Below the pieces are notes generated by a model. It worked only from the letters and a program-made list of their open reading frames with translations. It was not told where the DNA came from and searched no databases. A stretch of 64,000 nt of DNA, from NCBI RefSeq assembly GCF_013167455.1, contig NZ_CP038328.1; one strand, 5' to 3'. The DNA is from Escherichia coli O157:H7. Its GTDB lineage: Bacteria; Pseudomonadota; Gammaproteobacteria; Enterobacterales; Enterobacteriaceae. Below are positions 29,665 through 29,844 of the stretch, piece by piece; positions within the stretch are counted from its first letter, which is position 1; each line of letters opens with the position of its first letter. A program made the translations under genes and the position numbers.

Positions 29665-29720
29665 TTTAGTTATACGGCTTTAGTTATACGCCAGCCCGTA
29701 TAACTAAACGTATAACTAAA
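29665..29720. repeat. Four CGTATAACTAAA motifs (two inverted, two direct): candidate integrase arm-type sites
   Basis: Read from sequence; matches the two left-end copies at 20354-20377. Confidence 0.5.
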
Positions 29721-29742
29721 AAATCCGGCTGATAGCTTATAA

Positions 29743-29844
29743 ATCCGGTGATGTTCGGTGACTAAAAAACATAAAAAAACCCGCCAATCAAGTGATTAGC
29801 GGGTTATCCCTGTCTTATCCGGTGCTTTCCGGTGATATCCGGTG
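29743..29844. promoter_or_regulatory. Cluster of (A/T)TCCGGTG repeats in the int upstream region next to the att core
   Basis: About five copies at 29743, 29754 (variant), 29817, 29828 and 29837. Confidence 0.4.

Follow-up and report, generated by a model that had tools for sequence, protein, structure and literature searches.

A 64-kb stretch of Escherichia coli O157:H7 DNA (contig NZ_CP038328.1; hereafter the window) carries a 9.6-kb phage satellite at positions 20276-29866, inserted at the 3′ end of proL, the gene for tRNA-Pro(GGG), and two distinct families of short repeats lie around its attachment (att) sites and beside its recombination genes. By its gene organization, the insert is a Gram-negative phage-inducible chromosomal island (PICI). 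The two repeat families are best read as the accessory binding sites of a recombination module of the P4 type, in which the integrase (Int) would bind the first (family A) and the small protein AlpA the second (family B), a reading to which we give a probability of roughly 0.72. That family A consists of Int arm-type sites is highly probable, and that family B consists of AlpA sites is probable. The same roles had been put forward in an initial annotation of this DNA, which listed the families as candidate integrase arm-type sites and candidate AlpA or excisionase sites. The in silico evidence supports the first proposal through the Arm-DNA-bind_3 domain of Int, the P4-like layout, and the joint variation of the repeats on both arms, and the second through the phased arrays at the arm and the alpA leader, their matching by lineage, the winged-helix character of AlpA, and the behavior of its homologues.

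Family A is defined by the 12-mer CGTATAACTAAA. With up to one mismatch allowed, it is found six times in the 64 kb, all six copies being exact and all lying at the two ends of the island. Shuffled sequences give an expectation of 0.15, and none of 100 shuffles reached six. The two tandem copies at 20354-20377 and the four at 29665-29720, two inverted and two direct, are thus as first annotated. The repeats are unlike the core and stand on both arms of the attachment site at fixed distances from it, as arm-type sites do, and no copy is present at the alpA promoter. A related 12-mer, CTGATAGCTTAT, occupies 29729-29740 between the family B sites at 29724 and 29743. It agrees with the family A consensus at 8 of 12 positions (in the TAGCT variant), is in register with the last A site at a spacing of 20 bp, and may represent a degenerate fifth arm-type site.

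Family B, of the form WTCCGGTG, is found 13 times in the window against 3.67 expected, a count reached in none of 100 shuffles. Six of the 13 matches fall in two short stretches, at 27913 and 27923 before alpA and at 29743, 29817, 29827, and 29837 between int and the core, and these six are all on the plus strand at 10-bp spacing. The initial annotation had counted two copies upstream of alpA (27913-27930), both of which are exact, and about five between int and the core (29743-29844), of which four are exact while the fifth, GTTCGGTG at 29753, departs from the motif. When one mismatch is allowed, 29744-29838 is the densest family B cluster in the 64 kb. All good copies on the int-proximal arm (P) share a common helical phase, and inspection of the opposite arm (P′) found none, which leaves family B with two locations, the alpA leader and the arm next to int. 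The sites of a recombination directionality factor (RDF) are likewise direct repeats spaced by about one helical turn, all on a single arm and between the core and the arm-type sites. In the leader, the motif reads CACCGGA on the alpA sense strand and lies 16-35 nt upstream of the ATG.

If the two ends of the island are rejoined, the predicted attP would run from the int start through two inverted A copies, two tandem A copies, the first family B box (box I), a terminator hairpin, the second family B box (box II), the 17-bp core, and a 61-bp spacer to two further tandem A copies. The att core, tRNA, int, and alpA lie where the initial annotation had placed them (Table 1). Its labels attL and attR hold as the order of the junctions in the window and fail under the P4 convention, which calls the int-proximal junction attL.

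Table 1. Sites and genes of the recombination module and its insertion site, in window coordinates.
Feature	Position	Strand	Description
Family A, P′ arm	20354..20377	+	Tandem 12-mers CGTATAACTAAA at 20354 and 20366; pair centre 81.5 bp from core centre; predicted Int arm-type sites
Family A, P arm, inverted	29665..29690	-	TTTAGTTATACG at 29665 and 29679; begin 31 bp upstream of the int start codon
Family A, P arm, tandem direct	29697..29720	+	CGTATAACTAAA at 29697 and 29709; pair centre 149.5 bp from core centre
Family B, distal box (box I)	29724..29760	+	ATCCGGCT at 29724 (degenerate), ATCCGGTG at 29743, GTTCGGTG at 29753; adjoins the arm sites
Family B, core-proximal box (box II)	29817..29844	+	Exact WTCCGGTG at 29817, 29827, 29837; 10-bp spacing; ends 5 bp from the core block
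Family B, alpA leader array	27913..27953	+	ATCCGGTG at 27913 and TTCCGGTG at 27923 (exact); ATACGGTA at 27935 and CATCGGAT at 27946 (degenerate); spacing 10-12 bp; predicted AlpA autoregulatory sites
int, P4-type tyrosine integrase	28392..29633	-	413 aa from ATG at 29633; Arm-DNA-bind_3 + Phage_int_M + Phage_integrase
alpA	27689..27895	-	68-aa winged-helix excisionase/transcriptional regulator homologue
att core copy, yejO-side junction	20276..20292		17-bp identity block TTTGGTCGGCACGAGAG; duplicated 3′ end of tRNA-Pro
att core copy in 3′ end of tRNA-Pro(GGG)	29850..29866		17-bp direct repeat TTTGGTCGGCACGAGAG
tRNA-Pro(GGG), proL	29852-29928	-	
Intrinsic terminator for rebuilt proL, island-supplied	29778..29805	-	Separates the two family B boxes

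The island's AlpA belongs to PHROG 2790/66, 'excisionase and transcriptional regulator' (E 2.5e-6), and is 29% identical to P4 Vis (pairwise E 1e-7). Its AF2 model (pLDDT 84.7) has the topology E-H-H-E-E-H (strand-helix-helix-wing-helix), and the best fold match of the model is the GIsul2 excisionase (8c3t; TM 0.75/0.87; root-mean-square deviation 1.3 Å). The model also resembles Pukovnik Xis and the MerR-like proteins BldC and RacA, both of which multimerize on direct repeats. These matches support AlpA as a winged-helix excisionase-type protein. A small protein of this MerR-like/excisionase type is therefore predicted next to int, and it is the only recognizable DNA-binding protein in the recombination module.

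RDFs generally bind cooperatively to operators made of direct repeats spaced by one turn, and these typically occupy one arm only. TorI, for example, has five sites in attL, and Apl has five at att plus seven at pR-pL. The Apl protein of phage 186, P2 Cox, and the TorI protein that acts with IntS of KplE1 are all small winged-helix proteins that bind one-turn direct repeats cooperatively at att and at a promoter, although their protein families, integrases, and motifs differ from those of the window, and Apl and Cox serve the lysis-lysogeny switch of complete phages rather than a satellite's induction gene. A distribution like that of family B is what marks a winged-helix excisionase with two purposes, as exemplified by P4 Vis, 186 Apl, and TorI. 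Closer in gene type, alpA alone is sufficient for excision of Vibrio PICMIs, with transcription unchanged and with AlpA models like TorI/Xis, and AlpA of Shewanella CP4So is both required and sufficient for excision.

Relatives of the module were gathered by an Int search of genome contigs, which returned 12 loci, about 6 of them usable, and the co-variation statistics are correspondingly thin. Besides E. coli proL relatives, the search found members in Edwardsiella, Pantoea, and Rosenbergiella, and the layout is kept across these four genera (loci are cited below by our labels, such as L001, where needed). In the lineages examined, two phased family B copies lie just upstream of the alpA ribosome-binding site. 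Across lineages the motif has the general form WWCCGRTR, and its sequence in leader and P arm is TCCGGTG in the window and L001, (A/T)CCGATA in Pantoea, ATACCGAA in L005, and ATCCGGT in Edwardsiella. Leader and arm from the same lineage share about twice the 6- to 8-mers of mismatched pairs (permutation p about 0.02, 7 lineages), a modest but consistent signal over the family-wide consensus.

It is improbable that family B is instead bound by a factor other than AlpA, such as the product of orf83, a nucleoid protein of the host, or the factor by which a helper phage induces alpA. The WWCCGRTR form is fairly alike across lineages, as expected of sites for a conserved host factor, but the remaining variation follows lineage, and the leader of an element tends to agree with its own arm, which points to an element-encoded protein co-evolving with its sites. 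The case for orf83 (28063-28314) is that it is without a family match and that PICMI excision requires a gene at its position; yet L002 and L022 have no annotated open reading frame (ORF) between int and alpA and still carry phased CCG/ACG sites. A helper factor finds some support in EcCICFT073, where a function of the helper phage induces transcription of alpA. Against all three candidates, AlpA is the one protein of the module that can be recognized as DNA-binding, and its homologues Vis and TorI bind just such arrays.

Orf83 is an 83-aa product encoded between int and alpA, followed by a terminator at 28032-28055, and searches of Pfam and PHROG returned no family match for it. Its position is that of the iolg/icg genes, which are needed for excision in Vibrio PICMIs, and the relatives have different small ORFs there or none.

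Two further explanations for family B were discarded. It does not represent core-type Int sites, since Edwardsiella L006 has a different core beside the same B layout and since B is found at alpA as well. Antitermination of the Pseudomonas aeruginosa AlpA type, through an 'AlpA binding element', was also ruled out: that AlpA is a larger, Q-like protein of unrelated fold, which contacts DNA through residues 128-142 and has just one site, GGGACG, located between -35 and -10.

For family A, the protein evidence lies in the integrase. Int matches PF13356 (E 4.7e-23), PF22022 (E 4.9e-25), and PF00589 (E 5.5e-29), and thus has the N-terminal arm domain of a heterobivalent integrase besides its core-binding and catalytic domains. 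It aligns with P4 Int over its full length including the arm domain (34% identity, 404 residues, E 7e-81).

The closest described counterpart to the whole arrangement is the attP of P4, which likewise integrates at a tRNA 3′ end, with a homologous Int of the same three domains and a Vis homologous to AlpA. The P4 GenBank record lists repeats of 12 bp as 'attP arm sequence repeats', one of them inverted and overlapping the int start. Tandem pairs at 3942-3965 and 4151-4174 flank a core at 4078-4097, with pair centres 134 and 75 bp from the core centre compared with 149.5 and 81.5 bp in the window, and with the same orientations relative to int; the first pair corresponds to the tandem copies of the window's P arm and the second to those of its P′ arm. 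P4 also has CGGA-type sites with 10-bp phasing after the arm repeats and beside the core, including a phased ATCCGGATTT CAACGGACAA CCTCGGAAGA CGCAGGACGA where the window has box I, and a CCGGAT-type sequence upstream of vis. Published work on Vis reports that it binds attP in electrophoretic mobility shift and footprinting assays, bends the DNA, and represses the int promoter (Pint), and that P4 Int represses Pint as well.

Vis reportedly also protects two boxes between int and the core, from which the names box I and box II are borrowed.

The two systems differ in several respects. The P4 repeat WKATGCCCCCAA is unrelated to CGTATAACTAAA, and its single inverted copy lies over the start codon, whereas the window has two inverted copies that are clear of it. 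Only the window has an island-supplied tRNA terminator between the B boxes, and the rest of its element is PICI-like. P4 further has an annotated arm repeat within a gene (3621-3632), of which the window int has no counterpart; in Rosenbergiella (L007/L008), an extra arm-repeat copy lies within int at about 10085-10100, about 90 bp into the gene.

Conservation of family A among the relatives is consistent with its assignment to Int. In all of them, the block just upstream of int consists of two inverted and two direct copies, followed by AAAAA-TCCGG(C/T)TG. L003 and L004 have TAGCTA-type repeats, CGT(A/G)TAGCTAAA, on both arms, the far arm holding the same variant at an equal distance from the core. 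The tandem position of the P′ arm carries CGTATAGCTTAACGTGTAGCTAAA in L003 and L004 and AACGTATAACTAAACGTATAACC in Edwardsiella L006, where the core is a different, non-tRNA sequence, yet family A is present on both arms together with the family B layout. The TAACTA/TAGCTA variants thus change jointly on both arms. Wholesale replacement of family A is seen only in Rosenbergiella, which retains two inverted plus two direct copies with the sequence CTAGTCCTAA/TTAGGACTAG. The N-terminal 105 residues of its Int are about 50% identical to those of every other member, while the others are 69-84% identical to one another; outside this domain, its Int and that of the window share 74% identity, and its AlpA is no clear outlier. 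This change to CTAGTCCTAA is the one clear switch in which arm sites and the Int arm domain have co-evolved.

Exchanging or merging the assignments, so that AlpA would bind family A or both families, is very unlikely. AlpA was weighed as a possible binder of a doubled 12-bp motif in the study of helper-embedded PICIs (HE-PICIs; PMC10111431), and in Rosenbergiella AlpA has diverged along with the Int N-terminal domain. However, L005 and Rosenbergiella L007 have a near-identical alpA leader while their A motifs differ and their Int N-domains are 50% identical, and family A is never found at the alpA promoter, although AlpA homologues autoregulate; these observations argue for Int rather than AlpA on family A. 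Family A also lies on both arms in the arm-repeat geometry of P4, whereas RDFs typically use one arm only.

Both families appear to be under constraint. Between the P arms of the window and the 95%-identical L001 there are about 12 substitutions; the 48 bases of the A sites have none of these and the 42 B-core bases have one, compared with about 11 in the 126 bases elsewhere. The unit number of box II is three in the window lineage against two in those of L002 and L003, and alignment of window positions 29808-29849 with L002, L022, L003, and L004 shows a 9-bp gap of about one repeat unit. It is hard to credit that the repeats have no protein-binding role in recombination, with family B as slippage duplications or part of the proL trailer/terminator RNA and family A as iterons or packaging signals: box II does lie within the transcribed tRNA trailer, from the tRNA 3′ end to the terminator, and its unit number does vary by one, but the B motif appears again in the alpA leader, at a distance of 1.9 kb, four genera share the layout, which is also retained beside a non-tRNA core, family A flanks the core on both sides as in P4 rather than lying near the primase gene where PICI origins lie, and the sites of both families are depleted in substitutions.

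Several observations nevertheless weigh against placing Int on family A and AlpA on family B. AlpA scores below the curated cut-off of Pfam Phage_AlpA (PF05930; 17.9 against 21 bits) and, given its very small size, yields only weak E-values in Foldseek (0.1-0.3). The leader-arm co-variation is modestly significant across the 7 lineages, with the leaders of L003 and L007 matching the arms of other lineages equally well, and in L002 the leader copy of family B is single, inverted, and further upstream. With both proteins diverged in Rosenbergiella, the assignment of family A to Int rests on relative divergence and on the P4 geometry. The HE-PICI study left the binder of its doubled motif open among Int (through its arm domain), AlpA, and an unknown protein, and EcCICFT073 AlpA has no effect on Pint. 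Finally, a sigma-70 consensus promoter scan for Pint and PalpA returned none on the gene strand, so the overlap of the sites with promoters is a matter of position; candidates placed manually were dropped for want of conservation between lineages, and no promoter is claimed here.

From the sites, their geometry, phasing, and co-variation, and the protein families, all of them observed here, we infer which protein binds which repeats, the bending of the DNA, and the sign of regulation. The N-terminal domain of Int would bind family A, so that Int tetramers could bridge arms and core in integration as well as excision. Terminator and int start are 145 bp apart, and with four A copies in this interval a promoter specific to int would have to overlap A or B sites; occupancy of the A sites is expected to feed back negatively on int, as in P4. 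AlpA would bind family B cooperatively, one monomer per helical turn, and the resulting filament would bend the int-proximal arm, making excision between attL and attR possible and disfavoring re-integration. Through the four-site leader array, AlpA would also control its own expression, and induction of alpA by a helper phage could alone suffice to switch directionality to excision. Since the phased array straddles the proL terminator and int lies directly downstream of the tRNA in the same orientation, AlpA could in addition control whether transcription from the strong tRNA promoter of the host reads through into int, which would make one 68-aa protein activator, excisionase, and switch; this addition is a long shot.

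The 12-bp doublet of HE-PICIs offers a second comparison (PMC10111431, Williams lab 2023). The motif, tgTGTATTGCantgTGTATTGCa, occurs there as two co-oriented copies on opposite sides of the attP centre, at 81 +/- 2 and 132 +/- 2 bp from it, and was reported absent from other PICIs. Both elements are PICI int-alpA modules with 12-bp doublets, at 81.5 and 149.5 bp in the window, and they differ in the sequence of the doublet and in the inverted copies and second (B) family that the window adds. With up to three mismatches, tgTGTATTGCantgTGTATTGCa has no match in the island; the three matches elsewhere in the window, at 55-61 kb, are at chance level.

EcCICFT073, the E. coli PICI that has been studied by experiment, has the same int-alpA-...-primase order as the island. 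Its alpA is switched on by helper phages, and its AlpA activates its own expression and, when overexpressed, leads to int-dependent excision and replication. At the junctions of EcCICFT073, each arm carries a tandem pair of GGTGTAGTTAAT, one pair 141 bp and the other 95 bp from the core GGACATATTTAT. The second family, RRAACAAS, is phased at 10 bp and present in three to four copies per arm, with six copies after the int stop codon and more upstream of alpA. The six copies directly following int lie at 8185-8245, and the orientation is inverted on the att arms (6829-6871 and 18060-18080). These RRAACAAS copies form a candidate AlpA array. The element differs from the window in its AlpA (26% identity) and Int (23-32%), in having the second family on both arms, and in its non-tRNA site next to roxA/phoQ. 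Finding the same design there in other sequences indicates that the two-family architecture, as read from these junctions, is general for E. coli PICIs and not specific to the window island.

The repeat families are real, and their design is an ordinary one, long known from P4 (1987/2004) and lambda. What the analysis adds is a concrete attP map for a common E. coli satellite and the modestly new prediction that a PICI AlpA is an RDF with sites at att and at its own gene. The evidence suggests that AlpA of Gram-negative PICIs in general may be a direct excisionase, and the suggested combination of RDF and autoregulator would, if true, link helper induction of alpA with alpA-triggered excision. 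Also modestly new is the finding that the HE-PICI 'doubled motif' has clade-specific counterparts in proL PICIs, EcCICFT073, and P4, which makes it one version of a general P4-type arm-site design.

The island interrupts the chromosomal order yejO (17586-20177), proL, yejM (30003-31763), with the insert between yejO and proL. All of its genes are on the minus strand in the order int-orf83-alpA-icd-DUF4222-primase-terS-capsid, and the recognized products are an integrase, AlpA, an Icd-like protein, a DUF4222 protein, a D5-type primase, a small terminase, and a capsid-family protein. Gram-negative PICIs are defined by a unidirectional int-alpA-primase arrangement, a length of about 10-15 kb, the absence of tail or lysis genes, and the presence of some packaging or capsid-redirecting genes; the insert has the unidirectional int-alpA-primase arrangement and packaging/capsid genes in its 9.6 kb. 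At 95% identity and at least 80% coverage, the island is present in 1 of 5426 complete E. coli genomes, while the attR variant family is found at proL in 451 of the 5426. Most relatives have the int-alpA end and the capsid/terS end in common and a RepA-type helicase in place of the D5 primase, which indicates that the replication module is exchanged as a mosaic.

Integration has also replaced the native proL terminator, now at 20238-20272, with the island's own. The hairpin of this terminator is kept in all proL relatives, and changes in its stem preserve pairing. The loop contains a perfect match to the IHF consensus WATCAANNNNTTR at 29776-29788, which is present only in the window, L001, L020, and L021. 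As L002, L003, and the other genera do not conserve the match, no IHF site is claimed there. At the yejO side, the tRNA fragment is intact in the window (TTTTTGGTCGGCACGAGAG) and has small deletions in relatives (TTTTTGGCACGAGAG, TTTTTGGTCCACGAGAG), at 1578-1592 in L001, 2450-2463 in L003, and 2227-2240 in L004. These deletions match the 'tRNA fragment damage' described for PICIs at Pro and other tRNAs (PMC10111431).

Upstream of the family B array of alpA, adjacent 20-bp direct repeats, AAACAGTTCCCACCGTTTTT and AAACGGTATACACCGTTTTT, occupy 27960-28001. They are 80% identical to each other, can also form a hairpin, are 80% complementary to the B sites at 27916-35, and are conserved in L001, L003, and L004. 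These repeats may be an operator for helper-phage induction of alpA. In the Rosenbergiella-type alpA regions of L005, L007, and L008 they are replaced by three to four direct copies of YTTACCAACTWT, about 100-220 nt before the alpA start, which form a different candidate operator set at the same position relative to the gene.

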